From: Candidatus Nomurabacteria bacterium
Lineage (GTDB): Bacteria > Patescibacteriota > Patescibacteriia > HK-STAS-PATE-3
DNA: 64,000 nt
Assembly (NCBI GenBank): GCA_023898465.1
Contig: CP060223.1
Location: 448,001 to 512,000 of the forward strand
Reading direction: 5' to 3'
This document shows positions 17,274 through 36,256 of the stretch, one piece after another. Below the pieces are notes generated by a model. The model was not told the DNA's origin. It saw only the letters and a list, made by a program, of their open reading frames with translations, and searched no databases. Numbering within the stretch: the stretch's first letter is position 1; the number at the start of each line of letters is the position of its first letter. Position numbers and translations under genes: made by a program.

Positions 17274-18151
17274 AAAAGATAAAACTGCTATTCATCCTTG
17301 CCTGGCGAAATCTGCGTTGGACTTTTATTAAAGCAATTCACCTAAATGGCCAAATATCCGTACAAGTGTATGGAAAGAAAATTGTTCTCTATCTTAATCG
17401 TGTTGGATTAGACATCAAGGAGAATAATATTTTTAAACAGCTCGCTTTAGATCATAATCGCGAAGCTGAGGCCTCTAAGGTAATGCTAGACTTTATCGAG
17501 CCTGGAGACGAAATTTTTGAAGCCGGCGCAAATATTGGCTACTACGTTTTACTTGAAGCGAGTCGACTACAAGGCCAAGGTAAAATTTACGCAATTGAGC
17601 CAGATCCTAGTAACTACGAGCTACTTAAAAAAAATGTGGAGTTAAATGAACTGCAAAATTATGTTGATGTCCGTAAACTATCGGTCAGCGATAAAGTCGG
17701 TCACTCAGAATTTTTCCTAAGTAAGGATTCTAACCTGCACAGCTTCCTTCCGAGCGAAAATGATGAAGAGAGAACCTCAATTATGGTAGAGACAACTACC
17801 ATTGATGCCTTCTTAGCAGATAAACCAAAGGTTAACTTTATCCGAATGGACATAGAAGGCTATGAATGTCGAGTTATTTATGGGATGAAACAATTCCTTG
17901 CTAAGCCTGGCCCTTTAAAACTTTTTATTGAGCTGCATCCAAAGCTGGTTTCAAGGGAAGAAATGTTGAATTTGCTTACCATTTTGGAAGAAAGCGGTTT
18001 CACTATACATAAAGCAATCTCGCGAGATAACTATCTTCGGAAGCAGCTAGGACAAACCACTGTTGAGGAAATGACTATGGCTGAATTAAAGAGCGATCCG
18101 CGCTTGCTGGAAGAAAAACGCTCATTTGAAATGTTTTTCATAAAAAAATAA
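17270..18151 (+). CDS. FkbM-family SAM-dependent methyltransferase
   Basis: EAGANIGYYVL...IYAIEPDPSNYELLKKNVELNEL...SVSDKVGHSEF...FIRMDIEGYE, the FkbM-domain signature. Confidence 0.75.
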   Translation: MKKIKLLFILAWRNLRWTFIKAIHLNGQISVQVYGKKIVLYLNRVGLDIKENNIFKQLALDHNREAEASKVMLDFIEPGDEIFEAGANIGYYVLLEASRLQGQGKIYAIEPDPSNYELLKKNVELNELQNYVDVRKLSVSDKVGHSEFFLSKDSNLHSFLPSENDEERTSIMVETTTIDAFLADKPKVNFIRMDIEGYECRVIYGMKQFLAKPGPLKLFIELHPKLVSREEMLNLLTILEESGFTIHKAISRDNYLRKQLGQTTVEEMTMAELKSDPRLLEEKRSFEMFFIKK

Positions 18152-18152
18152 C

Positions 18153-19031
18153 ATGACCCAGGATGCTCAAAAACATCCCCTACTCACTGTCTGTATAGTT
18201 CACTACAGAAGGCTTGAGCAGCTCCAAAAAACAATAGATGCTCTTTTTCAAAATACCCGTACTGCATTTCTTCTCCGTGTGTATAACAACGGATACGAGG
18301 ATGATGGAATCAGGGAGTATCTAGATGGTATTAATCAGCGTAGCGATACTACGGTTATCTTTGACACAAAAAATATCGGCTGCTCCCCTGCTCGACACGA
18401 AATTGTAAAAAATATTGAGACACCCTTCATCCTCATGCTTGATGATGACATGTATGTAAATAAAGATTGGGACGTCCCCGTATTTAAAAAATTTGCAGAA
18501 AATCCTACGATTGGCGCTATTGGATTTTCAATTTATAAAATTGATGGGAGCTTCTGGTGGACAGGTGGACGCAATATTATTCTATCAAAAAAAGAAATTA
18601 AAATAGAGCGACCTCATATCGATCCAGAAAAATCAGACCTTGATTTTATAGAGCTTGATGATGTTGCCGCGGGGGCAATGATTTATCGAAAAGAACTTGA
18701 GGATATTATCGTTTGGGACAAGAATTATTTTATCGGCTTTGAGGATCTGGAGAAAGGTCTACATTTAAAACAGAGCAAATATTCCTGTCTCGTCTCAATT
18801 CAAAGTAAATTTATCCACGACAAAATATCTGAGAAACAGGAATACGCTGCTTATAACAATGCACGACGAAATTACCACGCCTACCGGAGAAGTTATCTAC
18901 ATTTTCTAAAGGAAAATAGATATCGTCTTGATTTGAAGCGCCATCTTTTCTACAAATATGTTTGTCTTCTTCCGAATAACATTCTGCAGAAGTTGGTATA
19001 TACTTGGTTAAGCATAAAAAAGAAGGGTTAG
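18153..19031 (+). CDS. GT2-like glycosyltransferase
   Basis: LLTVCIVHYRRLEQL...LMLDDDMYV (DxD-type) then GFEDLE, a GT-A-like arrangement. Confidence 0.6.
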   Translation: MTQDAQKHPLLTVCIVHYRRLEQLQKTIDALFQNTRTAFLLRVYNNGYEDDGIREYLDGINQRSDTTVIFDTKNIGCSPARHEIVKNIETPFILMLDDDMYVNKDWDVPVFKKFAENPTIGAIGFSIYKIDGSFWWTGGRNIILSKKEIKIERPHIDPEKSDLDFIELDDVAAGAMIYRKELEDIIVWDKNYFIGFEDLEKGLHLKQSKYSCLVSIQSKFIHDKISEKQEYAAYNNARRNYHAYRRSYLHFLKENRYRLDLKRHLFYKYVCLLPNNILQKLVYTWLSIKKKG

Positions 19032-19032
19032 T

Positions 19033-20823
19033 ATGAAAGAAATTCTACAGAAGCTTCAGGTGATTTTGCCACCAGGTGATAAGAAAAAAATCTTTGGCAT
19101 TTTTGTTTTAATGCTCATTGCAGCGATTTTAGAAGTTATCGGGATTAGTCTAATTCTTGCATTCATTTCAACGGTTTCTAATCCTGATACTCTTTTTCAA
19201 ATCACCTGGCTTGCCCCAATACTACAACGTGCAAATATTACGGATGCAAAAGGCTTACTTACCTACGGGTCGATTCTTCTCATTGTGCTCTTTGTTTTAA
19301 AAAATGCCTATATTATTTCGTTTCAGTATATCCAATCGCATTTCGTTTATCGCAGATTCAGCGCAATATCATCTCGGCTCTTTAATTCATACATGCGGGC
19401 GCCTTATATTTATCACCTTAATAATAATTCAGCTCGCCTTGTGCGTAATGTAACTGGAGAAACCACCTTACTCGTACACTACATCATGCTCCCCTTGCTG
19501 GTGGTGGTCATGGAATCAATCATGATCATTAGTATTAGTATCTTTCTTTTTGCGGTTGAGCCACTCAATACACTCATAGTGCTTTTCTTTGTCGGATCAA
19601 GTGGTATTTTTTTCCTTCGCTTAGTCAAAAAAAAGATTCAACACTTCGGATCTGAATCTCTGATTGAACGAGAAACTATGATTCGTCGCGTGAATGAAGG
19701 TGTTGGTGGTATAAAGGAAATACTCGTAAAGAATCGACAATCTTGGTTTATTAATGCGTTTACTCAATCGATCCATACTTACGCTAAAGCTGAAACATAC
19801 AAAAACATTTTTAAGATGAGCGCCCGGCCCGTTATTGAAACCGTTGCGGTGGCAGGCATGCTTTTAGTCGCCTTAGTACTCGTGTGGCAAGGACGTGGTG
19901 TAGAGTCGATCTTACCAGTACTAAGTCTCTTCGGCGTTGCCACATTTAAACTTATGCCCTCTTTAGATAAGGTTGTGAGTAATAGTAATGTGATTCGTTA
20001 TTACACTTATACGCTAAACTCAATCCATGATGATATTGCTGAGTTGAGTAAAATTGAAACTCCAATACACACAAACTCTGACAATAAAAAGATTTCCATC
20101 TCATCGACCTTAAGTCTTCAAAAGGTATATTTTCGCTACCCAGGCAGTGAGAAACAAGTGCTGCAAGATGTTAGTCTCACTATTCCAAAAGGTGCGGCAA
20201 TCGGATTTGTTGGCCCTTCTGGAGCTGGAAAAAGCACCATAGTGGATATTATCCTCGGACTACTGTCAATTGATTCGGGGCAAATCCTCGTTGATGGAAA
20301 AGATATAAAAAATACTATGGCAGCCTGGCAAAAAAATATCGGCTATATCCCGCAAACTATTTTCCTGGCTGATAATACTATTCGTAATAATATCGCCTTC
20401 GGACTAAACGACAATGAAATTAATGATGCACAGGTTTCTCGTGCTATTAAAATGGCACAGCTAGAAGAGTTCATTGCCTCCCTACCGCAAGGAGTGAACA
20501 CAATGGTTGGTGAACGAGGTGTTCGCTTAAGCGGTGGACAGAGACAGCGCATCGGTATTGCCCGAGCGCTTTATCATGACCCAGAGGTCTTAGTAATGGA
20601 TGAGGCGACATCCTCGCTTGATAATCAAACTGAAAAATATATTATTGATGCAATTGAAAACCTCAAACGGGATAGAACCATTATCATCGTGGCGCATCGT
20701 CTCAGTACAGTAGAGAATTGTGATAACTTGTTTTTCATCGAAAAAGGACACATAAAAGATTCTGGGACTTACTCACATATCATTCAACAAAACAGCGAGT
20801 TACTCGTAAATGAAAAAAGGTAA
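19033..20823 (+). CDS. Fused ABC exporter (TMD+NBD, MsbA/PglK-like); candidate lipid-linked glycan or polysaccharide exporter
   Basis: Six-helix N-terminal domain; Walker A GPSGAGKST, ABC signature LSGGQRQR, Walker B VLVMDEATS, and an H-loop. Confidence 0.85.
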   Translation: MKEILQKLQVILPPGDKKKIFGIFVLMLIAAILEVIGISLILAFISTVSNPDTLFQITWLAPILQRANITDAKGLLTYGSILLIVLFVLKNAYIISFQYIQSHFVYRRFSAISSRLFNSYMRAPYIYHLNNNSARLVRNVTGETTLLVHYIMLPLLVVVMESIMIISISIFLFAVEPLNTLIVLFFVGSSGIFFLRLVKKKIQHFGSESLIERETMIRRVNEGVGGIKEILVKNRQSWFINAFTQSIHTYAKAETYKNIFKMSARPVIETVAVAGMLLVALVLVWQGRGVESILPVLSLFGVATFKLMPSLDKVVSNSNVIRYYTYTLNSIHDDIAELSKIETPIHTNSDNKKISISSTLSLQKVYFRYPGSEKQVLQDVSLTIPKGAAIGFVGPSGAGKSTIVDIILGLLSIDSGQILVDGKDIKNTMAAWQKNIGYIPQTIFLADNTIRNNIAFGLNDNEINDAQVSRAIKMAQLEEFIASLPQGVNTMVGERGVRLSGGQRQRIGIARALYHDPEVLVMDEATSSLDNQTEKYIIDAIENLKRDRTIIIVAHRLSTVENCDNLFFIEKGHIKDSGTYSHIIQQNSELLVNEKR

Positions 20824-21904
20824 GAATATGAACACATTTAATGAAGAGTTAAATATATCAATAAAAAAGAATTTTCCTAATAATTATCAAGATAATGTTC
20901 TTCAAATACGGTTTAAAAAAAAGAAATTCAAAGTCTGGTTATTAGAAATATTATCGGATTTCACATACAGAATTGGATTGTTCAATCTAATTCTCAAAAG
21001 AAAAAAAATACTAATCGACAGTTTTCATTATCTTTATGATCGACTTAGCGACGACTATTCTAGAGAACTGTTAATACAAGTACTCACGTTCAGATTGTTG
21101 GGAAGTCGTAAAGTAAAGCTCCCGCTAAATGACGGTAACTACTTTAAGAGGATTGAAGACATTGAAAAAAGCGTTGCTAATAAAGACGATTTTCTCTCAC
21201 CAAACTTTTTAGACTGGAAATTATTTTTGTTTGATCTTGAGCAATATGGATATAAGGGAAAAGCATACTCGATAAGCCCAAGCATTTTTAGTAGCTTTGT
21301 ACAGCCGCAATACCAATATAATGGCACACTTATTGCAGCTAAGCCAGGCGACGTTGTTATTGATGCTGGAGCGTGTTGGGGCGAAACGGCTATGTATTTC
21401 GCTGAAAGGGTTAAAGAAAATGGAAAAGTGTACAGTTTTGAATTCCTACCTGAAAACCTCGAGGTAATGAGAAAAAACCTTTCTCTAAACCCAGAATATG
21501 CAAAACAAATTACCATGGTGGAAAAACCCGTATGGTCGAAAAGCAACGAGCCTATAACCTGCAACAACCTTGGTCCAGGAAACAAAGTTATTACTGGTGT
21601 AGATGAAGCATCAACTACTTATCATACAATCTCAATTGATGATTTTGCTGAACAAAATACACTTGAAAACGTTAACTTTATTAAAATGGATATAGAGGGA
21701 TCAGAGCTCGAGGCATTAAAAGGTGCTGAAAATGTAATAAAAAAATTTCGGCCTGTGTTGTCTATTTGCGTCTACCATAAACCAAGTGATTGCAAGCACA
21801 TTCCTGCCTATATTGAAAGCTTAAACTTGGGCTATAAGTTTTATTTTGACCACTATTCAATCTACGGTGAAGAAAGTGTACTCTTTGCGAAAGTCGAAAA
21901 CTAA
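20810..21904 (+). CDS. FkbM-family methyltransferase with N-terminal extension
   Basis: DAGACWGETAMYFAE...VYSFEFLPENLEVMRKNLSLN...FIKMDIEGSELEAL. A diverged paralog of the 17270 gene. Confidence 0.7.
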   Translation: MKKGKNMNTFNEELNISIKKNFPNNYQDNVLQIRFKKKKFKVWLLEILSDFTYRIGLFNLILKRKKILIDSFHYLYDRLSDDYSRELLIQVLTFRLLGSRKVKLPLNDGNYFKRIEDIEKSVANKDDFLSPNFLDWKLFLFDLEQYGYKGKAYSISPSIFSSFVQPQYQYNGTLIAAKPGDVVIDAGACWGETAMYFAERVKENGKVYSFEFLPENLEVMRKNLSLNPEYAKQITMVEKPVWSKSNEPITCNNLGPGNKVITGVDEASTTYHTISIDDFAEQNTLENVNFIKMDIEGSELEALKGAENVIKKFRPVLSICVYHKPSDCKHIPAYIESLNLGYKFYFDHYSIYGEESVLFAKVEN

Positions 21905-21905
21905 T

Positions 21906-23033
21906 ATGCAGAGCTCAAACCAACAACCAATTTATGTAACTAAACCAGCACTCCCGCCACTTGAAGAATTTACTGCTGAGCTAAAAACGATATGGGAGAA
22001 TCGAGTGCTAACAAATAATGGACCATTCCATCAACAATTTGAACTAGCCCTCGCTAAACATCTGGATGTTCCATTTGTATCTGTATTTAGCAATGGAACA
22101 CTTGCTTTGATGACTGCACTGCAATCACTTGATATCCAAGGTGAAGTTATTACTACCCCATTTAGCTTTGTCGCAACAACGCATGCACTTTGGTGGAACA
22201 AAATAACTCCAATATTTGCTGATATTGAATCAACTCATTTTACACTTGATCCTAATAAAACTGAGGAACTTATTACACCTCAAACAAGCGCGATCATGCC
22301 TGTGCACATTTATGGTTACCCATGCAGGACAAAGGAAATCGACATGATAGCAAAAAAGCATAATCTCAAGGTCATTTACGACGCCGCCCACGCCTTTGAT
22401 GTGAAGCAAGATGGTATTTCTGTATTAAATGCTGGCGACCTTTCTGTCCTAAGCTTTCATGCGACGAAAGTTTTTAATACAATTGAGGGTGGTGCGATCA
22501 TTTCCCATAGTGAAGAAATGAAAAATAGGATTGATCACCTAAAAAACTTTGGCTTTGAAGATGAGACAATAATAATTGGTCCCGGCATTAATGCCAAAAT
22601 GAACGAAGTGCAAGCTGCATATGGACTACTTCAACTAAAATATGTTGCTAAATATATAGAAGCCAGAAAAAGAATTGTAGAAAAATATCGTCTAGCACTA
22701 TCTGATATACCTGGCTTGCATTTCTTAGAAGACCAGGAAGGCGTACAAAATAATTACGCCTACTTCCCGATTGTTATTGATACAGAACATTGTATTCATA
22801 CGCGAGATTATATTTATGAGGAATTAAAAAAAGACAATATTTTTTCTCGTAGATATTTTTATCCACTCATAAGTAAAATTCCACTCTACGAAAATCTGGC
22901 GACAACTAAAGCAGCGCAGCTTCCGGTTGCATCTAAAATTAGCGAACAGGTTCTTTGTCTACCCTTATACCATGATTTAAGTGATAGTGATTTTACACGC
23001 ATCATTAGCAGTCTTAAAAGAATGCTTACATAG
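21906..23033 (+). CDS. DegT/DnrJ/EryC1/StrS-family PLP-dependent sugar aminotransferase
   Basis: Conserved LSFHATKVF lysine region, ...NGTLALMTALQSL..., and C-terminal ...CLPLYHDLSDSDF. Start taken at ATG 21906, immediately after the upstream stop. Confidence 0.8.
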   Translation: MQSSNQQPIYVTKPALPPLEEFTAELKTIWENRVLTNNGPFHQQFELALAKHLDVPFVSVFSNGTLALMTALQSLDIQGEVITTPFSFVATTHALWWNKITPIFADIESTHFTLDPNKTEELITPQTSAIMPVHIYGYPCRTKEIDMIAKKHNLKVIYDAAHAFDVKQDGISVLNAGDLSVLSFHATKVFNTIEGGAIISHSEEMKNRIDHLKNFGFEDETIIIGPGINAKMNEVQAAYGLLQLKYVAKYIEARKRIVEKYRLALSDIPGLHFLEDQEGVQNNYAYFPIVIDTEHCIHTRDYIYEELKKDNIFSRRYFYPLISKIPLYENLATTKAAQLPVASKISEQVLCLPLYHDLSDSDFTRIISSLKRMLT

Positions 23034-23045
23034 GAATCCATTCAG

Positions 23046-23747
23046 ATGAAAATAGCAATCATGCAGCCCTATTTTTTCCCTTATATCGGATATTTTCAGC
23101 TGATGAATGCTGTAGATGAATTTGTGGTTTACGACAACATTCAATATACCAAGAAGGGGTGGATCAATCGTAACCGTATCCTCCTCAATGGAAAAATTGA
23201 AACTATTTCTCTAGCGATAAAGAAAGATTCTGATTATCTCGATATACGCGACCGTTGCTTAGCTGATAATTGGATAAAGGAACGAAGTAGTATATTAAAC
23301 AGACTCAAATCCTCTTATCAGAAAGCCCCTTACTTCATTCCTACATATACTCTGGTTGAAAAGATACTCAAACAAGATTCGGTCAATCTTTTTGAATTTC
23401 TTTTTAACAGCCTGCAACTCATCAAAGAATATCTCCACATCCCCACCCCTCTTATCATTTCCTCTCAGGTTCCAGTCGACCATACGCTAAAATCAAGCGA
23501 GCGCGTATTGGCTATTTGCAAAGCACTCCAAGCAAATCAATATATTAATCCAATTGGTGGAACAGAATTATATACAAAAGAGCATTTCCTTAAAAATGGC
23601 GTTGCGCTCCAATTTCTCCGAACTCAAGCACATCATTACCAACAGTTTAATAAAGAACATGTACCCTATCTCTCTATTATAGATGTTATGATGTTTAATA
23701 GTCAGGAAGCGCTAAAGGACTTACTCCAAGAATACATTCTCGAATAA
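23046..23747 (+). CDS. WbqC-like family protein (O-antigen cluster-associated)
   Basis: N-terminus MKIAIMQPYFFPYIGYFQLMNAVDEFVVYDNIQYTKKGWINRNRI matches the WbqC family signature. Confidence 0.6.
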   Translation: MKIAIMQPYFFPYIGYFQLMNAVDEFVVYDNIQYTKKGWINRNRILLNGKIETISLAIKKDSDYLDIRDRCLADNWIKERSSILNRLKSSYQKAPYFIPTYTLVEKILKQDSVNLFEFLFNSLQLIKEYLHIPTPLIISSQVPVDHTLKSSERVLAICKALQANQYINPIGGTELYTKEHFLKNGVALQFLRTQAHHYQQFNKEHVPYLSIIDVMMFNSQEALKDLLQEYILE

Positions 23748-23756
23748 TAATCCCAT

Positions 23757-25061
23757 ATGCCCGCTCAAATAGATAAAAAAATTCGCGTACTCCTCTTCCC
23801 GGCTGGCTCAGAAATTGCTTTTGAAATTTATCACTCGCTTCGTCATAACCTCCACGTAGAAATATTTGGAGCTTCGGGAAAGTCTGATCACGCGAGCTAC
23901 TTATATGATTCCGAGCATTACTTCGAGGGTCCATATCAAATCTCCGACGAAAAATTTAATGACCACTTCACCGAGTTATTAAAAGAGCAAAAAATCGATA
24001 TGGTCATGCCAACACATGACTCAGTAACTGAATTTTTGGCAAAACACCGGGATAAATATCCAGCAAAAATTTTGACTTCTCCATACGAAAGCACAAGGAT
24101 AGCTCGACAGAAGATCCTCACCTACGAGCTTTTTCAAGCTTATGATTTCCTGCCAAAGCAGTATTTACCGCCATATCAGAATCTTGAGTATCCTATTTTC
24201 CTCAAGCCAAATCAGGGACAAGGCGGGAAAGGCACTTGTTTAGTTCATACATATGAAGAGCTGCAGGAACAAACCAGTAAGCAACCTGACTTAGTTGCTT
24301 ACGAATATTTACCAGGCGAGGAGCTGAGTGTTGATTGTTTTACCGATCGACATGGCCAGTTGCGTTTTATTGGACCAAGGACTAGAGCAAGAATTGATTT
24401 TGGCATTTCCTTTAGGACAGAGTCTCGTCCGGTCACTCAGGATATTCAGACAATTGCCGAAACAATAAATACAAAGGTTGCTATTCGAGGCGCGTGGTTT
24501 TTTCAAGTAAAAAAAGATAGCACAGGTAAATATAAACTCATGGAATTTGCAGTTCGCCAGGCAAGTACTATGGGTCTTTATCGTCAAATTGGAGTTAATT
24601 TTGCCTTACTCACGATATTCGACGCGCTCGACATCGATGTAAAGATTCTAAAAAATGACTATCCTATCACGCTTGATCGCAGAATGCTAAACCGATATAA
24701 AGCTGATTTCACTTACACAAAAGTATACATTGATTTCGATGATACAATTATCATCAATGAAAAAATTAACATTATCGCACTGCAGTTTCTCTATCAATGT
24801 AAATATGCTCATAAGAAAATTTGTCTTCTCACAAAACATGAGTTCGATCTCGATGAGACATTACAGAAATACTGCCTTGCAAAAAATCTATTTGACGAGA
24901 TTGTGATTTTACATCCTGGAGAGGACAAGACTGATCACATCGTTGCCGACGATGCAATTTTTATTGATAACTACTTTTTTGATAGAGAAAAAGTAAAGCA
25001 GCGTCACAATATTCCTGTATTTGATGTAGACGCCATCGAGAGTTTATTACTTAATACATAA
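23757..25061 (+). CDS. ATP-grasp enzyme fused to C-terminal HAD-like domain
   Basis: ATP-grasp core (YPIFLKPNQGQGGKGTCLV...EYLPGEELSVDCF) through ~aa 300, then a ~130-aa domain opening with IDFDDTII (HAD motif I, DxDxT). Confidence 0.6.
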   Translation: MPAQIDKKIRVLLFPAGSEIAFEIYHSLRHNLHVEIFGASGKSDHASYLYDSEHYFEGPYQISDEKFNDHFTELLKEQKIDMVMPTHDSVTEFLAKHRDKYPAKILTSPYESTRIARQKILTYELFQAYDFLPKQYLPPYQNLEYPIFLKPNQGQGGKGTCLVHTYEELQEQTSKQPDLVAYEYLPGEELSVDCFTDRHGQLRFIGPRTRARIDFGISFRTESRPVTQDIQTIAETINTKVAIRGAWFFQVKKDSTGKYKLMEFAVRQASTMGLYRQIGVNFALLTIFDALDIDVKILKNDYPITLDRRMLNRYKADFTYTKVYIDFDDTIIINEKINIIALQFLYQCKYAHKKICLLTKHEFDLDETLQKYCLAKNLFDEIVILHPGEDKTDHIVADDAIFIDNYFFDREKVKQRHNIPVFDVDAIESLLLNT

Positions 25062-25064
25062 GGC

Positions 25065-26030
25065 ATGTTCCGCTGGAAGAAACTAGGAAAAGTATTTGAC
25101 CCAACACAAAACGGAAATGATGCGTGGATGCAGACTTTTGCTCAAGCTCCTGCCACTTTAGTTTTTGATTCTTTTGTTCGAGTATATTTTTCTTGTCGGC
25201 CACTTCCGGACAAAAATGGTCAAGCGACAAGCTATGCCGGCTTTGTTGATCTTGATCGAAAAAACCTTTTTAATATTCTTAGGATCTCAAAAAAACCCGT
25301 GCTTCCGCTTGGAGAAATTGGTAGTTTTGACGAGTTTGGTATTATGCCCATCTCAGTCATTCGAGATAAGCATCGATTACTCGCTTACTATGGCGGATGG
25401 ACTCGATGCGTTTCCGTTCCATTCAATATCGCTATTGGTCTGGCTGAAAGTAAGGACAATGGGGAAACTTTTGAAAAAATTGGCCCTGGACCCGTACTCT
25501 CGTATAGCCCTGATGAGCCGTTCTTAGTTGCGGTTCCTAAAATTAGGAAATTTCAAAATCGCTGGTTTCTCTGGTATACCGCCGGGACTCATTGGAGAAA
25601 AGTAAATGGAAAGACTGAGGCGGTTTATGGCATCCGGATGGCTACATCAACTGACGGCGTTACATGGAAAAAAGAGCATCGAAAAATTATTCCAAACGTT
25701 TTAGGTGAGAACGAGGCGCAAGCAAGCGCTGACGTTTATTTTGCTAACGACATCTATCACATGTTTTTTTGCTATCGGCATACTTCTGATTTTCGTACAA
25801 ATAAAGATCGGGCTTATCGGATTGGCTATGCTTACTCTCAGGATGGATTTCATTGGCAGCGTGACGATTCACGGGTAGGCATCGACATATCGACTGAAGG
25901 ATGGGATTCAGAAATGATCTCTTTTCCTCATATTTTTTCACTGGACGGAAAAACCTACATGCTCTACTTGGGAAATAACTTTGGTCGAGAAGGGTTTGGA
26001 ATTGCTGAACTTGAAGGGAGTTTACAATAA
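25065..26030 (+). CDS. Five-bladed beta-propeller glycosidase/phosphorylase-like protein (GH43/GH32/GH130-like fold), paralog 1
   Basis: Shares WKKLGKVFDP, FRTNKDRAYRIGYAYSQDGFHWQRDD, EGWDSEMISFPHIF and GFGIAELE blocks with the next gene. Family assignment rests on my recollection of these motifs. Confidence 0.45.
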   Translation: MFRWKKLGKVFDPTQNGNDAWMQTFAQAPATLVFDSFVRVYFSCRPLPDKNGQATSYAGFVDLDRKNLFNILRISKKPVLPLGEIGSFDEFGIMPISVIRDKHRLLAYYGGWTRCVSVPFNIAIGLAESKDNGETFEKIGPGPVLSYSPDEPFLVAVPKIRKFQNRWFLWYTAGTHWRKVNGKTEAVYGIRMATSTDGVTWKKEHRKIIPNVLGENEAQASADVYFANDIYHMFFCYRHTSDFRTNKDRAYRIGYAYSQDGFHWQRDDSRVGIDISTEGWDSEMISFPHIFSLDGKTYMLYLGNNFGREGFGIAELEGSLQ

Positions 26031-26031
26031 T

Positions 26032-26985
26032 ATGCACTGGGAAAAACTCGGAAAAATTTTTGATCCGTCCCAACACAATCTTCCAAACGATTGCAAGCTT
26101 TTCGCGCAATCGCCTCAGGTGTTACTTTTGGACGACCGAATACGGATATATTTTTCTACCCGACAAGCAGATACACCCACAACCTACCTCAGTCATATTG
26201 CTTATGTCGATTTTACAAATGACTTTTCTAAAGTACTTGAAGTCTCAAAAAAAACCGTACTTCCTTTAGGGAAACTTGGCACCTTTGATGAACACGGCAT
26301 CTTTCCAATGAATGTCTTAAGGTTTCAAGATCGAGTACTAGGGTTCACAAGCGGCATTTCTCGTAGATCTTCTGTATCAGTGGAAACATCTATTGGCCTG
26401 GTGGAAAGCTTTGATAACGGAGAAAGCTTTCAGCGAAATAGTGATGGCCCTATCCTTACCTCCTCTCTTCATGAGCCATTTATGGTAGGCGATCCTTTTG
26501 TCCAAGCATACGAAGGAAAACTTCATATGTGGTACATCAACGGAGTACGATGGAAACCAAAAACAGCCCAGGAACCTGCTGCACGAGTATACAAAATTGC
26601 TCATGCAACTTCCTTAGACGCCATACATTGGCAAAATGATAATCGTCAAATTATTAGTGACGTTCTCAATGCCGATGAGTGTCAGGCGCTTCCTACTGTA
26701 ATTAAAATTAAGCAAAGGTACTACATGTACTTTTGCTATCGCGAAGCCAGTGATTTTCGAACAAACAAAAATCGTGCGTATCGAATTGGATGCGCCTATT
26801 CGGATGACCTTACCCATTGGACTCGAGATGATGCCCAAGCTGGTATCACTGTTTCAGACCAGGGCTGGGATTCAGAAATGCAGTGCTACCCTCACGTCTT
26901 TCAAAAAGATGATGTAATATATTTACTTTATAATGGAAACGCCTTCGGCCGCGATGGTTTTGGCTTAGCTAAGCTTGTTGGATAA
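26032..26985 (+). CDS. Five-bladed beta-propeller glycosidase/phosphorylase-like protein, paralog 2
   Basis: WEKLGKIFDP, FRTNKNRAYRIGCAYSDDLTHWTRDD, QGWDSEMQCYPHVF and GFGLAKL. About 40-45% identical to paralog 1. Start at ATG 26032, 1 nt after the upstream stop. Confidence 0.45.
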   Translation: MHWEKLGKIFDPSQHNLPNDCKLFAQSPQVLLLDDRIRIYFSTRQADTPTTYLSHIAYVDFTNDFSKVLEVSKKTVLPLGKLGTFDEHGIFPMNVLRFQDRVLGFTSGISRRSSVSVETSIGLVESFDNGESFQRNSDGPILTSSLHEPFMVGDPFVQAYEGKLHMWYINGVRWKPKTAQEPAARVYKIAHATSLDAIHWQNDNRQIISDVLNADECQALPTVIKIKQRYYMYFCYREASDFRTNKNRAYRIGCAYSDDLTHWTRDDAQAGITVSDQGWDSEMQCYPHVFQKDDVIYLLYNGNAFGRDGFGLAKLVG

Positions 26986-26990
26986 TACCT

Positions 26991-27938
26991 ATGAATTCTG
27001 ATTCTCCTCTCGTCAGTGTAGTATGCGTCACATACAATCATGGTCCATATATTGCAGAAGCAATAGAAAGTTTTTTACAGCAAGAAACTGACTTCCCTTT
27101 TGAAATTATCATTGGAGAAGACTTCAGTACAGACGAAACCAGGGAAATTTGCTTGGAATATGCAAAAAAGTACCCTGATAAAATCCACCTAGCGATTTCT
27201 GATGGAAATGTCGGGGCACGTAATAATTATTTTCGCGCTTTGTCAGCCGCACGAGGAAAATATATTGCATTTTGTGAAGGAGATGATTACTGGTCGGATC
27301 CAAAAAAGTTGGCAATCCAAATTGGCTACATGGAAAAACATCCAGAGTGCAGTCTCACCTTCCACTCGGTTCGAATTATCAACGGAGATAAAGCAACCAA
27401 TAAGACGATTCGTCCCTTTAACAAAAAAACAATTATTCCAAAAAATACCTTTTTTGGCTACGGCACGATGGCACCATCCCCCACTCTTGTGTATCCCAGA
27501 AAATATATTATAGACCCACCTGATTGGCTTCGTCACTCGCCTGTTGGGGATATACCCTTGAAGCTCTATCTCTCTCAACTTGGTACAGTAGTATATCTGG
27601 ATAAAATCATGGCCATGCGAAGAATTGGCGTCGAGGGTTCGTGGAGTAAACGCATGCAAACTTTTTCATACCGACAAAAACTCTTTCCAGGTATGATTGT
27701 AATGCTTGAAGGTTTTAACGAATTTAGTAAATATATATATGCCTATCAAGTACTAAAAAAACAGCTAAGCTACGAAATTAAAAGTGTGAAAAATCCAATA
27801 ACAAAAGTAAGACAAATGCTAAAACTCATCCGAACAAAATATTCAAAATCGTACTCTTCTCTTTCGCTTACAAAAAAAATGTTTGCAATTGGTAATCTAT
27901 TTATCACAAGCATAGTTGAACAGGTAGCACGTCGTTAG
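26991..27938 (+). CDS. GT2 glycosyltransferase
   Basis: VSVVCVTYNHGPYIAEAIESFLQQ...EIIIGEDFSTDETREI...GDDYW, GT-A with a DxD-type motif. Confidence 0.75.
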   Translation: MNSDSPLVSVVCVTYNHGPYIAEAIESFLQQETDFPFEIIIGEDFSTDETREICLEYAKKYPDKIHLAISDGNVGARNNYFRALSAARGKYIAFCEGDDYWSDPKKLAIQIGYMEKHPECSLTFHSVRIINGDKATNKTIRPFNKKTIIPKNTFFGYGTMAPSPTLVYPRKYIIDPPDWLRHSPVGDIPLKLYLSQLGTVVYLDKIMAMRRIGVEGSWSKRMQTFSYRQKLFPGMIVMLEGFNEFSKYIYAYQVLKKQLSYEIKSVKNPITKVRQMLKLIRTKYSKSYSSLSLTKKMFAIGNLFITSIVEQVARR

Positions 27939-27940
27939 CC

Positions 27941-28831
27941 ATGGAACCCACTACATATCCAAACAGCCCGGTGTTCTTAATAGGCTCCCCGCGCAGTGGA
28001 AAAACAATACTGCACACCTTACTTGCGCAAGGTAATGACTTCGCCTGGTTTTCCCAATACTCAAGCAAATTTTATACTCATACTTGGCCGGCTTATTTAC
28101 CACGTATATATCAAATTCCATGGCTGGGAAGATATTTACAAAAACATGCTCGTTTACGCATACTCCCCCACCCTGAAGAAATTTCTCACAAGTTTATTCC
28201 AATAATGACTCAGTACGGTTCACTTGAGCAAACTCATGTGAATGAAGCAAATCAAAAAAAACTGCAGCACTGGGTGAGAAAACAAATGCAAGCGCAGAAA
28301 AAAAATCGTATGCTCATTGACTGCGGCCGACCTGCTCGCATATCTTTTTATCACAAAGTCTTTCCTGAGGCAAAATTTATTCACCTTATCAGAGATGGGC
28401 GCGCAGTAGCAGTTGAAATGCTCCGTAGTTACCCTTATATGTTTACTGAAAAAAGTAGTATTGATAGTTATTTTATCCAGACGCCCGAGGAATTTAAAAA
28501 CTACTTACCTAAAAAAAGCGATGATCCATCTCGACCTCTCATTTTAGCCGCCCTGTACTGGAAAATGTCTGTTCGTGAAATTGAGCGGCAAGCCAACCCA
28601 CTTGGAGAGGATGTTTTATCCATCCGATTTGAGGATATTCTCCAAAATCCTACTTCGGAGCTAGAAAAAATCTGTCGCTTTGTGGAATCGGCAAACTCTG
28701 CTAAAATCATCAAGTCTGCTAAGGTTCAGCGATTTCAGTATAAGGATGCCTCCCAGCTCATGGACAAGCAAGGCTACGAGAAATTGACCCATATACTGCA
28801 TGACGAGCTAAAAAACTATGGCTACATTTAA
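27941..28831 (+). CDS. Sulfotransferase family protein
   Basis: 5'-PSB motif FLIGSPRSGKTILH and 3'-PB-like IRDGRAVAVEM (RDGR), with a FIHLIRDGR context. Confidence 0.65.
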   Translation: MEPTTYPNSPVFLIGSPRSGKTILHTLLAQGNDFAWFSQYSSKFYTHTWPAYLPRIYQIPWLGRYLQKHARLRILPHPEEISHKFIPIMTQYGSLEQTHVNEANQKKLQHWVRKQMQAQKKNRMLIDCGRPARISFYHKVFPEAKFIHLIRDGRAVAVEMLRSYPYMFTEKSSIDSYFIQTPEEFKNYLPKKSDDPSRPLILAALYWKMSVREIERQANPLGEDVLSIRFEDILQNPTSELEKICRFVESANSAKIIKSAKVQRFQYKDASQLMDKQGYEKLTHILHDELKNYGYI

Positions 28832-28858
28832 CCATTTAGTATTCAGAAAAGTAAGCAT

Positions 28859-29575
28859 ATGATGGATCTCGATATACTTAAGAAACGTGCTGATGATCGC
28901 TGGTTTGTAGTGGATCGATCAAAAGGCAAAAGGGTCTTAGAAATCGGTTGCGTAAACCATACTATTGAAGGAATTGAGGAGCAGCGCAGGATTGGCACTT
29001 GGCTTTTTGATTATCTCCACGTGTATGGAACTCATGCTACTGGTATTGATATTGACCAACCAGCAATTGACCATTTAGCCAAACAGGGCTACGACATCCG
29101 GTATGGAGATGGGCAAGATTTTAATCTGAACGAAGAGTTTGAAGTTATTATTGCATCAAAAGTAATTGATCATCTTACCAATATTGATGGTTTCCTAAAA
29201 AGCTGTAAAAAGCATCTCTCTCCCGACGGTAAACTCATTATCACTGATGACAACATTCTCTGCGTTCCTCAGCTCCTGACATGGTATGCAAAGAAAAATG
29301 TTGGACATCCTGACGATGATATAACTGTAAAAATTATTCCGGAGTACTTCCGCCTCTTTGTGAGGCGCTATGGCTTTGAGGTCGAAGAAATACATTATGT
29401 AGTTGGCACAGGAAATTCTTTTCTCTTCAAGCTGTTCCGTTTCATAAAAAAAATAATGCCAAAGCGCCTAGTACATGAACCGCTTTTTTATCCAAACTAC
29501 ATCATTCAATTACGTCATCGTACGAATGAAGAGAGCGAGAAGGGTGCTACTGCACATCACTCGCATCAGCACTAG
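28859..29575 (+). CDS. Class I SAM-dependent methyltransferase
   Basis: VLEIGCVNH (motif I-like), ...IIASKVIDHL..., LSPDGKLIITD (motif III-like). Confidence 0.55.
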   Translation: MMDLDILKKRADDRWFVVDRSKGKRVLEIGCVNHTIEGIEEQRRIGTWLFDYLHVYGTHATGIDIDQPAIDHLAKQGYDIRYGDGQDFNLNEEFEVIIASKVIDHLTNIDGFLKSCKKHLSPDGKLIITDDNILCVPQLLTWYAKKNVGHPDDDITVKIIPEYFRLFVRRYGFEVEEIHYVVGTGNSFLFKLFRFIKKIMPKRLVHEPLFYPNYIIQLRHRTNEESEKGATAHHSHQH

Positions 29576-32057
29576 GCGGATCAATGATCTCGTAAACACT
29601 TACACCCTGTACCGATCCAATTGCTTGAAAGTATTTTGATGGATCAATTTTGGTGTTGAGATTCTCTTCATTTTCATCATAGTACTCCACATCTTCGTAA
29701 AGCTTAGAGAGGATCAAATCGGAACGATCTGTAGCTATTTTGTCGGTGGAATCAGTGAAGAGATAGAGTAAAGAGATAAAGTTATTTTGACCTTTGGTGT
29801 CTATAAAAGTACTTAGGTGGTATTTTTCCATTGCTCCAGGAAAACCTAAATCGCTAATATCCTTCCTGAGACTTTCCAATTCTGCTTGATTCGAAATCGC
29901 ACTTAGCTGCACAAATGGCTGGTGTGTATATAAATAAAGCACACGGTATTCTGAAGAATATGTCATGGCCTTACTGTTAGCGTCGCTATTCTTCAATATT
30001 ACGTCTCGTATGGCCTGCACTTCGAGTTGAGATAACTTACTTTGAAGAAAGTACTCTGGTGTAGGATTTAAAGTAAGCCCCATAGTTAATAATATGAGTG
30101 TAAATGTTGCTATAGTGCTCTTCTTTGATAAGACGAGGTTCTTCTCAATTTGATACAAAACACCGCCCACAAAAAGAACCATGGTCAAAACAAAAATATG
30201 ATTATAATACCATGCAAAGCGAATTGACTTTGAAGCCAGGATTAAAAAAATAAATGAAGTAAAGAAGAAAGTGAGGAGTATATAAAATTTCTTGCGGGGT
30301 AGAAACCAAAATGTACCTAAAGAGATAAAAAATACAAAGCTGATAAAGGGTGTACTCATATACCGAACTCTATCAAACAATTGTAGATAGAAATCCACGT
30401 TTAAGAGCAACGATGTATCTGTTAGGAATTCACCACCAAGAGCTTGTAGGGACTTTCGCAAAAAGAAAAGAGAGAGTAGTAGAAAAAATGCCCCAGTAGA
30501 AATAAGGCTTGTCCGCCAAACTTTTTTGTTTCTTTGCAGCAAACGAAGTGCCTTAGTAAATGGATATTTAAGAACCAGATAAATACCTAAAACTAGTAAT
30601 AGGAATACCACAAGCATAGTAATATTTCTCCCCCACTCATCAGCATGTGCCGGCAAGCTGCGGAGAAAAAGGGTAAAGAAAATATACGGAGAAAAGCTTG
30701 CTAATGCCAACTTAATTAAATGCAACATCTTTTCCTTTTCGAGGAAGAGTACGAGTAAAGCAAGAAGTGGACCGCCTATTACGACAAACGATAACTTACA
30801 TAAGAAGGCAAAACCAAGGATGATGAAAGAGGCGTCTCTTTTCCCGTAAAGGTATAAATTAACTGAGCAAAGCAAAAAACATAGTGCTGTTGCATCAAGT
30901 GTTGTGGTCCAAGTCAATAAATTAAAAACTGGAGTAAGTGAAAAAATGTACGTAAGTGCAATTGCTACAAGAGGTGAAAAAAGTCGTCTGGTTAATAAAA
31001 ATATGCTTCCTAAAATAAAGGAGCCAACAATAGTAAGATATATACGAACAATTGACTCATCGCTAAAATATGACCTCAAACTAAAGAATGGAGCAAGGGT
31101 CCACTCAAGTACCGGCATACGCCAAAATGTACCGTACTCCTGATCTTCAGCACTTCCAAAAATTCCTGCGTAAGCGGGGTTTCTGAATACAAATGGATTT
31201 TTTGCTTCATACATTTCTTGAGCAACTGGCACATAGCTCACATATTTTCCAGGGTGAAGTTTAATAAAAAACGAGTCATGGAAATATGGGACTCGAATTG
31301 CAAAATAATTCAACAGAATTAATGCCAACAAAAAAATGGATAAAACGTTCTTTTTACGAAAAAGTATGAACAATGTAGGAAGCAAAGGGATGCGACTAAA
31401 ACGGGAATGGCTAAAACGAATTTTTCTATACAGCTTTTCACTACTGTCTTCATCGTGGGCTGCCACATCTTCGATTTTGCGTTCACGATATATCACTTTA
31501 TTATTTAATATAAGCCAAATGAAGAATAATAGAGCCGTACTGTACAAGACTGCACTTACGGGCGTATTTAATATAGTCACAAAAATTCCACGCTGCTGTG
31601 TAAAGGTTGCCACAAGCGATATAATCAAAACAGCCAACAAAACAATCCCGTAATGAAGTGATGGGATTTGCATTTTTTCAAGACTTTTTTCTCTACGAAG
31701 TCTATTTGTGAAAGTAAAAAGCAAGGCGAGCGTCAACACAAGCACAAAGAAGCTTAAATAAGCGCTCACATCGGTACTTTGTATCAAGACCCTCTCTATG
31801 TGGACAGCGCTCCATACGTTTACCCAAATTGCGAGTGCTATTAACAAAGTAAATGATATCTTTCTTCTTAAAGTGTCCCGTATTCCTTGATAGGCAAAAA
31901 GAATCAAGATACTAAGGAAAATATTAATTTGTAAAAAACGCAAAGATAATTCGATCATCTCAATAGCCAGATCTCGATTCCAAAAGAAAACTAAACAAAT
32001 AGCGCCGAGAAAAATTGGTGGCAAGTATTTGAATGTCTTATGAAAAAAATGTGACAT
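29547..32057 (-). CDS. Large polytopic membrane protein, GT-C-like (ArnT/PMT/YfhO-type) glycosyltransferase candidate, paralog A (836 aa)
   Basis: More than 15 hydrophobic segments. The block NPFVFRNPAYAGIFGSAEDQEYGTFWRMPVLEWTLAPFFSL is shared with the next gene (NPFWHQRKY...FNDFSHIPVLEWSLAGTYTLLP). Has a C-terminal ~200-aa soluble domain. No WWDYG motif. Confidence 0.5.
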   Translation of the reverse strand: MSHFFHKTFKYLPPIFLGAICLVFFWNRDLAIEMIELSLRFLQINIFLSILILFAYQGIRDTLRRKISFTLLIALAIWVNVWSAVHIERVLIQSTDVSAYLSFFVLVLTLALLFTFTNRLRREKSLEKMQIPSLHYGIVLLAVLIISLVATFTQQRGIFVTILNTPVSAVLYSTALLFFIWLILNNKVIYRERKIEDVAAHDEDSSEKLYRKIRFSHSRFSRIPLLPTLFILFRKKNVLSIFLLALILLNYFAIRVPYFHDSFFIKLHPGKYVSYVPVAQEMYEAKNPFVFRNPAYAGIFGSAEDQEYGTFWRMPVLEWTLAPFFSLRSYFSDESIVRIYLTIVGSFILGSIFLLTRRLFSPLVAIALTYIFSLTPVFNLLTWTTTLDATALCFLLCSVNLYLYGKRDASFIILGFAFLCKLSFVVIGGPLLALLVLFLEKEKMLHLIKLALASFSPYIFFTLFLRSLPAHADEWGRNITMLVVFLLLVLGIYLVLKYPFTKALRLLQRNKKVWRTSLISTGAFFLLLSLFFLRKSLQALGGEFLTDTSLLLNVDFYLQLFDRVRYMSTPFISFVFFISLGTFWFLPRKKFYILLTFFFTSFIFLILASKSIRFAWYYNHIFVLTMVLFVGGVLYQIEKNLVLSKKSTIATFTLILLTMGLTLNPTPEYFLQSKLSQLEVQAIRDVILKNSDANSKAMTYSSEYRVLYLYTHQPFVQLSAISNQAELESLRKDISDLGFPGAMEKYHLSTFIDTKGQNNFISLLYLFTDSTDKIATDRSDLILSKLYEDVEYYDENEENLNTKIDPSKYFQAIGSVQGVSVYEIIDPPSADASDVQ

Positions 32058-35367: not shown

Positions 35368-36256
35368 TTATACCCATAGCAACATCAATGCTCGGCCCCC
35401 AATTCAACTCCTTGGCACTTTTTTGCACATCAAGACTACTCGCCATCAATTCACCGGGAATCTCCGGACCGTGCTTTGCTTCAAGATCGCTGTGCATGGA
35501 ATCTTTTATTAAGCTCCAAAGCTGGCTGATGCTGGTTTCTTGACTCGTACCAACGTTGAATATGCCGACACGATCCGAGTCAGCCGCCGCAATAAAAGCC
35601 CGCACAACGTCGGAAACGAATACGAAGTCTCGAGTTTGCGATCCGTCACCATTAATTTGCGGTGAACGATTGTGCAATACGTGATCAATAAATATTGCCA
35701 CTACACCCGCTTCACCCTTTGGATCTTGCCGAGGGCCGTATACATTTGCTAAGCGGAGTGCTGCGCTGGGCATCTTATACACTTTCGTATAAGCCGAAAG
35801 ATAATACTCAAAGGCCCGCTTCCCTATTCCGTACGGTGAAATAGGTGCAGCTAAACCAGTTTCTGGAGTTGGTCTTGCCTCATCTGCATCATAAATCGCC
35901 CCGCCGGTTGAGGCAAAGAGAAACTTCTCTACCTGTATTTCACGAGCCGCTTCAAGTAACTTAATACTACCAATAATATTAATATTGGCATCTTCGTCTG
36001 GATGTTCAAGTGAGTAGCGTAGATTTTTTTGCGCAGCTAAGTGAAATATCTGGTTCGGCTTAAACCTTTTAATTTCCTGAGCGGTCTTATCTTTACAGAT
36101 ATCAAGTTCTAAGAAATCAACCTCCGGATGCAAATACTCTTTATTGCCGGTGGACAAATCATCTATCACCAATACTCGATTACCCTGGGAGAGCAGCGCG
36201 TCAACCAAGTGAGAACCAATAAATCCAGCTCCCCCAGTTACGACGACTTTGCTCAT
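35321..36256 (-). CDS. NAD-dependent nucleotide-sugar epimerase (GalE/WbpP-like)
   Basis: [31 protein letters not shown] (YxxxK), [12 protein letters not shown]. Confidence 0.8.

Follow-up and report, generated by a model that had tools for sequence, protein, structure and literature searches.

In a genome of Candidatus Nomurabacteria, we identified a gene (positions 23757–25061, plus strand, stop codon included, of the 64,000-nucleotide stretch of DNA analyzed here, "the window") that encodes a real, widely conserved two-domain enzyme, predicted to join an ATP-dependent amide-forming ligase to a small phosphatase. The fusion probably adds a decoration to an amino sugar of surface glycans. 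We put at about 0.45 the probability that it is bifunctional and, with a co-inherited DesI-like DegT aminotransferase, would make an N-acylated amino sugar that goes into a surface glycan. The gene is annotated in databases only as "ATP-grasp domain-containing protein," which hides half of its function.

The open reading frame runs from ATG to stop exactly where the original prediction had placed it and encodes 434 amino acids. A homologue search with the protein returned 2273 homologues, including an identical protein deposited from a Candidatus Nomurabacteria MAG; the best 120 of the 2273 are ~430 amino acids long, and nearly all of these span ~98% of the query. AlphaFold predicted the full-length protein with a pLDDT of 93.6 and a pTM of 0.90. 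Conservation at full length in at least 372 species-level genomes from many phyla, together with the high pTM, speaks against a gene-calling artefact or an accidental fusion, and we reject both.

The gene had been said to lie between WbqC and the aminotransferase; this is wrong, since DegT precedes WbqC and the fusion gene comes after both. The order in the window is FkbM methyltransferase (20810–21904), DegT/DesI-like PLP aminotransferase (21906–23033, plus strand; Pfam DegT, 316 bits), WbqC-family protein (23046–23747, plus strand; Pfam WbqC, 232 bits), the fusion gene, and two GH130-like beta-propellers (25065–26030 and 26032–26985, both plus strand), which do follow as predicted. The first propeller has weak matches to GH130 mannoside phosphorylases in Pfam, NCBIfam and the PDB, and the second is its tandem paralogue (45% identity). 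For WbqC, neither the single sequence nor a 28-member profile found a PDB relative. WbqC and the two propellers are cassette partners of the fusion in the closer clade only.

Domains and catalytic residues of the fusion protein

Residues 1–300 (23757–24656; this and all features of the gene given below are on the plus strand) form an ATP-grasp domain composed of an N-terminal PylC-like sub-domain, a small lid sub-domain and a C-terminal sub-domain. The assignment, made in the original prediction, was borne out by Pfam, where ATPgrasp_Ter scored 54.1 bits against a cut-off of 29.1, ATP-grasp_3 scored 23.8 bits against 23.2, and PylC-like_N also matched the N-terminal part. It was borne out as well by structure: the AlphaFold model has the three-sub-domain ATP-grasp fold, and a Foldseek search with the full model matched 2pn1, PylC, an L-amino-acid ligase, PurK, PurT and biotin carboxylases (E about 1e-16 to 1e-14, probability 1.00, over 305–350 columns), with the first three at E about 1e-16. 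The NCBIfam equivalogs of the PRK12767 "carbamoyl phosphate synthase-like protein" type did not reach their cut-offs; the best scored 97.8 bits against 390 (NF009405), and the others were also far below.

The two motifs on which the prediction had relied, FLK150PNQGQGGKG and YE183YL185PGEELSVD193, are both present and invariant in relatives. We compared 83 relatives (40–100% identity, many phyla), in which both catalytic residue sets of the protein are 97–100% conserved. On the ATP-grasp side, K119, K150, E183, L185, E189, D193, R208, R210, Q250, E263 and R267 are each conserved in 83/83. The ATP-binding lysine and glycine-rich lid loop (K150-PNQGQGGKG; 24204–24233) coincide with a dip in pLDDT, as expected for a mobile loop, and with G156 also at 83/83, the ATP-binding lysine, the lid and the E-x-L adenine hinge are all in place. 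The metal-ligand positions look unusual beside the canonical pattern, in which an acidic residue on one strand and E-x-N on the next bind Mg: E263 is invariant, but the usual acidic ligand of ATP-grasp relatives is replaced by Q250 in all 83 sequences, and position 265 is Ala or Ser, never Asn. PurK and PurT likewise carry an E-x-A/S-P-R form.

A beta-hairpin linker (residues 301–320; 24657–24716) with strands at 304–308 and 312–316 and the conserved sequence LDRxLxNRY leads into the C-terminal domain. Its R308 is invariant among the 83 relatives, and even degenerate copies of the gene retain a remnant of it.

Residues 321–434 (24717–25058) are predicted to form a cap-less (C0) HAD-fold phosphatase domain. 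A Foldseek search with the full model returned ATP-grasp matches alone and none for HAD, so the C-terminal domain was modeled separately; that model has the Rossmannoid HAD core and the flap hairpin after strand 1. Motif I, D326-F-D328-D-T330 (24732–24746), stands at the end of strand beta-1 (322–325) and supplies the putative nucleophile D326 (83/83) and the Asp+2, D328 (82/83); T330 is found in 77/83. Motif II is T359 (24831–24833), at the end of strand beta-2 (354–359) and Thr or Ser in 83/83, and motif III is K391 (24927–24929), also 83/83, at the start of helix 391–394. Motif IV, D404-N405-x3-D409 (24966–24983), follows the strand at 400–403 and is likewise conserved (D404 in 82/83, N/D405 in 82/83, D/E409 in 81/83), reading DD-x3-E in divergent members. 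The HAD-like character claimed for the C-terminus therefore holds, with motifs II–IV present and conserved in a predicted HAD fold. The IDFDDTII stretch said to begin the domain is indeed found at residues 325–332, but the domain spans about 110 residues rather than ~130. Neither of the two contrary outcomes that had been named, missing motifs II–IV or an N-terminus other than ATP-grasp, was found.

The domain scan suggested earlier gave ATP-grasp matches but no match to a curated HAD profile. Pfam and NCBIfam scans of the whole protein and of its C-terminal domain brought no HAD model above threshold, and no model of either library passed on residues 310–434; below threshold, Hydrolase_6 appeared in 5/27 family members and Hydrolase in 2/27, with E of 0.016 or worse. 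A profile of the C-terminal-domain family matched no HAD chain among PDB sequences. Because no sequence-profile library recognizes the domain, the HAD call rests on predicted structure and motif conservation. The HAD half of the fusion would define a subfamily absent from present profile libraries.

Occurrence of the fusion and its genomic partners

The joining of ATP-grasp to HAD is the rule and is obligate. The HAD domain family comprises 872 clusters, at the C-terminus of ATP-grasp proteins of ~425 amino acids. The question had been raised whether homologs of the two halves occur elsewhere as separate adjacent genes. A representative search yielded four short "stand-alone" HAD proteins, none of which is a clean split: (i) a frameshifted fusion with a deletion in the lid domain (L087), (ii) a degenerate copy (L088), (iii) a remnant behind a phosphoglucomutase-like gene (L086) and (iv) a protein whose 926-bp contig has stop codons upstream of it (L005). 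With the apparent splits so accounted for as frameshifted, degenerate or remnant, we reject the possibility that the halves are commonly encoded separately. Variant architectures with a fusion to a GNAT domain or to a second ATP-grasp do exist; these fit an acyl group that bears another reactive group. We found no characterization of the family in the literature, including comparative work on flagellin glycosylation islands.

A DesI-like DegT aminotransferase is the near-universal, tightly linked partner of the fusion. Among 56 loci, each of 15 kb or more, DegT adjoins the fusion gene or lies within 10 kb of it in 53; no DegT lies that close in the Paracidovorax and Acidovorax loci. The partner DegTs are 39–62% identical across phyla. 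For the DegT of the window, the best PDB match is DesI (2po3; E 1.4e-59), and its PDB relatives include NtdA, another DegT-family enzyme.

The loci themselves are of several kinds. Some are flagellin glycosylation islands, others resemble O-antigen or capsule loci, one is of the wall-teichoic-acid type, and one is the Nomurabacteria operon, whose host belongs to the candidate phyla radiation. In Firmicutes the order is fusion gene, DegT and RmlB-like dehydratase. In Bacillus pumilus it is RmlA, RmlB, TagF, fusion gene, DegT, GT2 and TagG/H; this locus has no RmlC/D and no N-acyltransferase gene that Pfam identifies. A 4,6-dehydratase is nearby in about 30% of loci only (RmlB-like gene in 16/56); RmlA is present in 14/56 and a nucleotide-sugar dehydrogenase in 5/56. 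Neither a kinase gene nor one that would form a sugar phosphate is conserved across the loci.

Proposed function and rival explanations

How might the two halves work together? From the chemistry of its family, the ATP-grasp half would turn a carboxylate into an acyl-phosphate, which would then react with the amine that DegT supplies (most likely NDP-4-amino-4,6-dideoxyhexose) to give an amide. The acid would itself bear a phosphomonoester "handle." Candidates for such an acid are found among common metabolites, for instance 3-phosphoglycerate and O-phosphoserine; the acyl donor is a guess, since no gene of the minimal loci points to one. The cap-less HAD, with D326 as nucleophile, would then hydrolyze the handle phosphate, probably on the ligation product and possibly before ligation, so that the sugar would end up with a hydroxy-acyl or amino-acyl group in amide linkage, and neighboring glycosyltransferases would transfer the product. 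Macromolecular substrates are common among cap-less HADs, so the target of the HAD half could be glycan-bound. In favor of the scheme are the two folds, the conserved catalytic residues, the fusion itself, the DegT partner, the gene content of the B. pumilus and Firmicute loci and the variant architectures; against it count the unusual metal-ligand positions, the small share of loci with a 4,6-dehydratase nearby, the Paracidovorax and Acidovorax loci and the guesswork over the acyl donor. Of the function first proposed for the gene, ligation of an amino acid or other carboxylate to an amino sugar fits both the DegT found in 53/56 loci and the RmlA/RmlB/DegT flanks in B. pumilus; dephosphorylation of a sugar phosphate is not the likeliest version, as none of the genes in the loci yields a sugar phosphate that would have to be dephosphorylated.

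Both halves could also be active in two other ways. The HAD and the ligase could have separate targets: a PurT/PurK-like ligase would add a small un-phosphorylated acid (such as formate, bicarbonate or glycine) to the amino sugar, and the HAD would independently dephosphorylate a sugar phosphate or, like NtdB, an amino-sugar phosphate. The action of the HAD on a sugar phosphate is what the original prediction had suggested. PurK and PurT are indeed among the closest folds in Foldseek, the E-x-A/S-x-R motif resembles that of both enzymes, and NtdA, which acts on a sugar phosphate ahead of a HAD phosphatase, is among the PDB relatives of DegT. We nevertheless regard separate targets as unlikely: that the fusion is obligate and its linker rigid and conserved argues for coupled steps, the loci conserve no gene that would form the sugar phosphate, and a sugar set free by dephosphorylation would have to be activated again before it could be used in glycan assembly. 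Alternatively, the roles could be reversed as in Campylobacter jejuni, with the aminotransferase making a small phosphorylated amine (similar to serinol phosphate), the ATP-grasp half using it to amidate the carboxylate of a uronic acid within the glycan, and the HAD stripping the phosphate from the amide. This is about as unlikely. The C. jejuni transaminases are of class I/II (Aminotran_1_2), not DegT, whereas the fusion is paired with a DesI-like enzyme; neither Cj1438C nor Cj1435 shows detectable homology; a dehydrogenase is near the fusion in only 5/56 loci, fewer than have the RmlB-like gene or RmlA; and in B. pumilus, RmlA and RmlB occur in the locus without a dehydrogenase.

It could also be that ATP-grasp is the sole enzyme and that the HAD-like domain catalyzes nothing, being an appendage with a structural or regulatory role such as oligomerization or substrate docking. 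The domain is very small and cap-less, and no profile library recognizes it. This explanation is nonetheless very improbable, because the nucleophile Asp, the Asp+2, the Thr/Ser, the Lys and both acids of motif IV are 97–100% conserved in the 83 sequences from many phyla, as expected only of a working active site.

If both halves do act in turn on one acylated amino sugar, a broader reading suggests itself, which we hold to be doubtful. DegT and the fusion would constitute a previously unrecognized two-gene module across many phyla that adds a hydroxy-acyl or amino-acyl amide (glyceroyl, seryl) to NDP-4-amino-4,6-dideoxyhexoses, with the ATP-grasp half standing in for the cap that the HAD lacks and passing its product on directly. 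Were this true, the HAD half would be a new subfamily, and a so far unassigned step would be accounted for in many flagellin-glycan, teichoic-acid and O-antigen loci. If the function proposed for the fusion is right, hundreds of species could be predicted, from the single annotation rule "fusion plus DegT partner," to carry an N-acylated amino sugar, among them candidate-phyla-radiation bacteria, gut Firmicutes and plant-associated Proteobacteria. The flagellin glycans of such plant-associated Proteobacteria affect immune recognition.

Comparison with known systems

Among ATP-grasp enzymes, the best fold matches are 2pn1 and the branch that holds PurT, PurK, PylC and the L-amino-acid ligases. 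They share with the fusion the PylC-like N-domain, the glycine-rich lid and the ATP-binding lysine, but are only 13–18% identical to it, and none has a C-terminal HAD domain. The best sequence match is 2pn1 as well (E 2e-9), an uncharacterized "carbamoyl-phosphate-synthase-like" protein. Among HAD phosphatases, the cap-less (C0) enzymes MDP-1 (1u7o), T4 PNKP phosphatase and HisB-N have no detectable sequence similarity to the fusion HAD, and their substrates (glycated proteins, DNA 3'-phosphate and histidinol phosphate) are unrelated to glycan assembly. HAD-IB (PF12710) is a capped subfamily, and the fusion protein has no match to it.

The capsule glucuronamide pathway of C. jejuni HS:2 employs the Cj1437 transaminase, an ATP-dependent amidoligase at the C-terminus of Cj1438, and the HAD phosphatase Cj1435 (PMC11800397). 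The logic proposed for the fusion is the same: a PLP aminotransferase provides an amine, which an ATP-dependent ligase uses for an amide linkage in a surface glycan, and the phosphate that the attached unit carries is then taken off by a HAD. The components differ: C. jejuni has an ATPgrasp_TupA ligase, an Aminotran_1_2 transaminase (Cj1436 and Cj1437 both belong to that family) and a HAD-IB phosphatase, all as separate proteins, whereas the fusion has a PylC/PurK-like (ATPgrasp_Ter) ligase, a DegT partner and a cap-less, fused HAD. Cj1438 is a PF14305 protein, and the fusion protein has no match to PF14305. With hhalign, the family profile gave a probability of 0.5% against Cj1438C and 0.4% against Cj1435; at these values, below 1%, there is no homology beyond the superfamily level, and with the families also differing we reject orthology with either protein. 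Ligation followed by dephosphorylation would thus be analogous, not homologous, to the work of Cj1438C and Cj1435.

HAD phosphatase modules fused to a biosynthetic partner are known from the polysaccharide ribofuranosyltransferases (7shg) and from CrpP of Bcs3 (8a0c), where that partner is not an ATP-grasp but a PRPP-dependent glycosyltransferase. In CrpP, a helical cap is present and motif I is missing its second Asp, whereas the HAD of the fusion is predicted to be cap-less and has the complete DxD. In both precedents, Cj1438C/Cj1435 (PMC11800397) and CriT/CrpP of Bcs3, the phosphate removed is the one brought in by the building block just attached. Should the function proposed for the fusion be right, it would provide a third example of such "phosphate-handle" chemistry in the assembly of bacterial glycans and the first to join an ATP-grasp ligase to its phosphatase.

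The fusion gene within its glycan operon

The fusion gene encodes a protein of 434 aa and runs on the + strand from an ATG at 23757 to a stop codon ending at 25061. It starts 9 nt past the stop codon of a gene for a WbqC-family protein (23046-23747, +) and ends 3 nt short of the first of two β-propeller genes (25065-26030 and 26032-26985, both +). The gene for a DegT aminotransferase (21906-23033, +) lies upstream of WbqC, giving the order FkbM methyltransferase, DegT, WbqC, fusion gene, propeller, propeller. The original prediction had placed the gene between WbqC and the aminotransferase; in fact both are upstream, and the propellers lie downstream. These genes belong to a same-strand run (14231-29575, +) in which, from 15184 on, neighbors overlap or are separated by at most 27 nt. 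The run opens with genes for an SDR epimerase/dehydratase, GT2, GT4, an FkbM methyltransferase, GT2 and a fused TMD-NBD ABC exporter; after these come another FkbM methyltransferase, DegT, WbqC, the fusion protein, the two propellers, GT2, a sulfotransferase and a methyltransferase. As a decorated-glycan pathway, this is unusually elaborate for a candidate-phyla-radiation bacterium.

Convergent to the operon are genes for two large polytopic membrane proteins of 836 and 650 aa (29547-32057 and 32060-34012, −) with PMT_2 (ArnT/GT-C-like) matches, which may be periplasm- or surface-side glycan transferases. Beyond them (34021-38473, −) lie a nucleotide-sugar dehydrogenase (UDP-ManNAc/GlcNAc dehydrogenase-like), two SDR epimerase/dehydratases and MetK (SAM synthetase); beside a locus with four methyltransferases, MetK may provide a local supply of SAM. 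A 931-aa subtilisin/mycosin-like serine protease with an OmpL47-type β-barrel domain is encoded at 39731-42526 (−). The GC content rises to 52-53% at ~8000-12300 (ORFs 8979-10502 and 10506-12284, +) against 37-47% elsewhere; this is not rRNA, as Rfam found only one tRNA (46917-46987) in the whole window.

An ATP-grasp ligase fused to a HAD-like domain

The N-terminal domain (aa 1-300) matches ATPgrasp_Ter in Pfam at 54.1 bits (cut-off 29.1) and ATP-grasp_3 marginally over its cut-off, and has a sub-threshold match to PylC-like_N. NCBIfam "carbamoyl phosphate synthase-like" models also match the protein, yet with scores far under their cut-offs, and it falls outside the PRK12767 equivalogs. The closest sequence match in the PDB is the uncharacterised 2pn1 (E 2e-9). 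A full-length AlphaFold model, built on an alignment of 55 sequences, reached a pLDDT of 93.6 and a pTM of 0.90. Its top Foldseek matches were 2pn1, PylC, a Bacillus L-amino-acid ligase, PurK, PurT and biotin carboxylases (E ~1e-16 to 1e-14 over ~305-350 columns). The protein thus belongs to the PylC/PurK-like branch of the ATP-grasp superfamily.

Both motifs quoted in the original prediction, FLK150PNQGQGGKG and YE183YL185PGEELSVD193, are present and invariant among relatives. Residues K119, K150, E183, L185, E189, D193, R208, R210, Q250, E263, R267, R276 and N281 are identical in 83 of 83 relatives. Q250 (nt 24504-24506) occupies a Mg-binding position that is normally acidic. At a second such position, normally Asn, A265 (nt 24549-24551) is A or S in 80 of the 83 and never N. 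PurK and PurT also have an E-x-A/S-P-R form, and we therefore treat these non-canonical metal-ligand positions as a probable clade trait, which may be PurK/PurT-like, and not as a sign of inactivity.

A hairpin linker (aa 301-320) leads into the C-terminal domain (aa 321-434). In the model, motif I (D326-F-D328-D-T330) closes strand 1 and is followed by a short hairpin, motif II (T359) closes strand 2, motif III (K391) opens a helix, and motif IV (D404-N405...D409) comes after strand 4. Among the 83 relatives, D326 is conserved in 83, D328 in 82, T330 in 77, T/S359 in 83, K391 in 83, D404 in 82, N/D405 in 82 and D/E409 in 81. The HAD assignment, first made from motif I, is thus borne out by motifs II-IV, and the modeled fold and motifs together place the domain in the HAD superfamily, though current sequence profiles miss it. 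There is no cap insertion, and the domain is therefore a C0-type HAD, with a complete predicted phosphatase active site. A non-catalytic HAD-like domain is contradicted by this conservation.

Fusion of the two domains is the rule. The protein has 2273 homologues, of which the best 120 are ~430 aa long, with alignments that take in ~98% of the query in almost every case; an identical protein has been deposited from a Candidatus Nomurabacteria MAG. A profile search with the HAD-like domain against 1.84 billion representative proteins returned 872 clusters, and in complete proteins the domain spans approximately residues 310-425 of ~425. Uncommon architectures add an N-terminal extension, a second, PylC-like ATP-grasp with canonical E-x-N-P-R after the ATP-grasp/HAD pair (P0229, 778 aa) or a GNAT (Acetyltransf_6) domain in the same place (P0231, 733 aa); the latter two suggest extra modification of the attached acyl group.

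The original prediction had also asked whether the two halves are encoded elsewhere by separate, neighboring genes. The answer from four short, seemingly separate HAD proteins was essentially negative: (i) one, L087, is a frameshifted fusion missing the ATP-grasp lid region, (ii) L088 is degenerate, (iii) L086 sits after an unrelated phosphoglucomutase-like gene and before a transposon-associated gene, and (iv) L005 lies on a 926-bp contig with upstream stop codons and the linker still there. In L087 (215-4761), the order is WbqC, a formyltransferase (Formyl_trans_N), SDR, the damaged homologue, with its lid deletion and a frameshift ahead of the HAD, and an FkbM methyltransferase; perhaps the formyltransferase assumed N-acylation there and the ligase decayed.

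Distribution and genomic partners

When species-representative genomes were scanned, at least 372 contained a relative, and of the 80 loci retrieved, nearly all carried the gene at full length. Relatives occur in many Firmicutes (e.g., Bacillus pumilus, Clostridium tertium and Butyrivibrio), in Bacteroidota, Saccharibacteria, Parcubacteria, Elusimicrobia, Verrucomicrobia, Chloroflexi, Beta-, Gamma- and Deltaproteobacteria and Planctomycetes, and in one Methanobrevibacter MAG. We compared the window's neighboring proteins by tblastn with 56 loci, each no shorter than 15 kb. A DegT relative was present in 53 of the 56 (39-62% identity to the window's DegT), an RmlB-like dehydratase in 16, RmlA in 14 and a nucleotide-sugar dehydrogenase in 5. 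The window DegT is nearest to DesI (2po3, E 1.4e-59), ahead of perosamine synthases and QdtB. Linkage of the fusion gene to WbqC and both propellers is confined to the closer clade (roughly ≥48% identity), and the distant, mostly Firmicute clade typically shows GT2 ... fusion gene - DegT (- dehydratase).

Within the closer clade, WbqC invariably comes next after the DegT gene. The literature describes the WbqC family as functionally uncharacterised, and no PDB relative was found with either the single sequence or a 28-member profile. The propellers, which in this clade invariably come as a pair immediately after the fusion gene, are tandem paralogues (45% identical, ~320 aa each) with only a weak match to GH130 β-1,2-mannoside phosphorylases (7fip, E 5.8e-6); a phosphorylase-like role, with a sugar-1-phosphate as glycosyl donor, is speculative.

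Several loci are associated with flagellin. In Cupriavidus, the cassette adjoins a TPR/GT41 glycosyltransferase and flagellin within the flagellar cluster; in Paracidovorax, the order is flagellin, methyltransferase, fusion gene, GT2; and in Clostridium tertium it is TPR-GT2, radical SAM, fusion gene, pyruvyl transferase, DegT, flagellin. A fliA-fliC island reported from Dickeya zeae encodes WbqC and DegT along with a "glycosylase" and hypothetical proteins. The Bacillus pumilus locus reads GT1, TagF, RmlA, RmlB, TagF, fusion gene, DegT, GT2 and a TagG/H-like transporter; Pfam detected no N-acyltransferase and no RmlC/D near the fusion gene. ABC-transporter and Wzy-type loci are further contexts. 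In an Oscillospiraceae MAG (L078), a capsule-like locus contains the block GT2 - Wzx - fusion gene - DegT, directly preceded by aminoethylphosphonate biosynthesis genes (4075-7663: a PEP mutase/cytidylyltransferase fusion, phosphonopyruvate decarboxylase and a class-V aminotransferase).

A proposed reaction and its precedents

ATP-grasp enzymes of the PylC/PurK-like branch form amides via acyl-phosphates, and the sole constant partner, DegT, is a member of the NDP-keto-sugar aminotransferase family, i.e., an amine maker. Because of these two features and the Bacillus pumilus locus, where RmlA and RmlB flank the pair and Pfam detected no N-acyltransferase or RmlC/D, the simplest interpretation is that the ATP-grasp domain would N-acylate an NDP-4-amino-4,6-dideoxyhexose. 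A fused, conserved and catalytically complete phosphatase would need a phosphomonoester within the same reaction. For this reason, and given two precedents in glycan pathways, we propose that the acid substrate carries a phosphate, which the HAD domain would strip, most likely after ligation; the ubiquitous 3-phosphoglycerate and O-phosphoserine are guessed candidates. The GNAT and second-ATP-grasp fusions fit an acyl group bearing a further reactive group.

Alternatively, the two domains could act independently, with a PurT-like ligase that takes an unphosphorylated acid and an NtdB-like phosphatase acting on a sugar phosphate. This reading is less likely, as neither the obligate fusion nor the absence of conserved kinases or sugar-phosphate-forming genes is easily reconciled with it. 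The Campylobacter jejuni arrangement taken literally, with a small phosphorylated amine joined to a uronic acid of the glycan, is weakened on three counts: Cj1436 and Cj1437 are class I/II aminotransferases and not DegT, dehydrogenases are seldom linked to the fusion gene, and the fusion-gene proteins show no detectable homology to their C. jejuni counterparts. The fusion protein lies outside the C. jejuni glucuronamide system.

A literature search found no paper characterising the fusion-protein family or WbqC. The ATP-grasp/HAD architecture is widespread, fused and undescribed, and the gene gives a concrete starting point for testing a step that is unassigned in many loci for flagellin glycans, teichoic acids and O-antigens. 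The proposed logic has precedent in two experimentally established systems, in which a phosphate is brought in and then removed by a HAD enzyme. In C. jejuni, Cj1438C ligates serinol phosphate to glucuronate and the HAD protein Cj1435 then dephosphorylates the product (PMC11800397); in Hib Bcs3, PRPP donates ribose-5-phosphate, from which the fused HAD domain CrpP afterwards removes the phosphate (PMC10299916).
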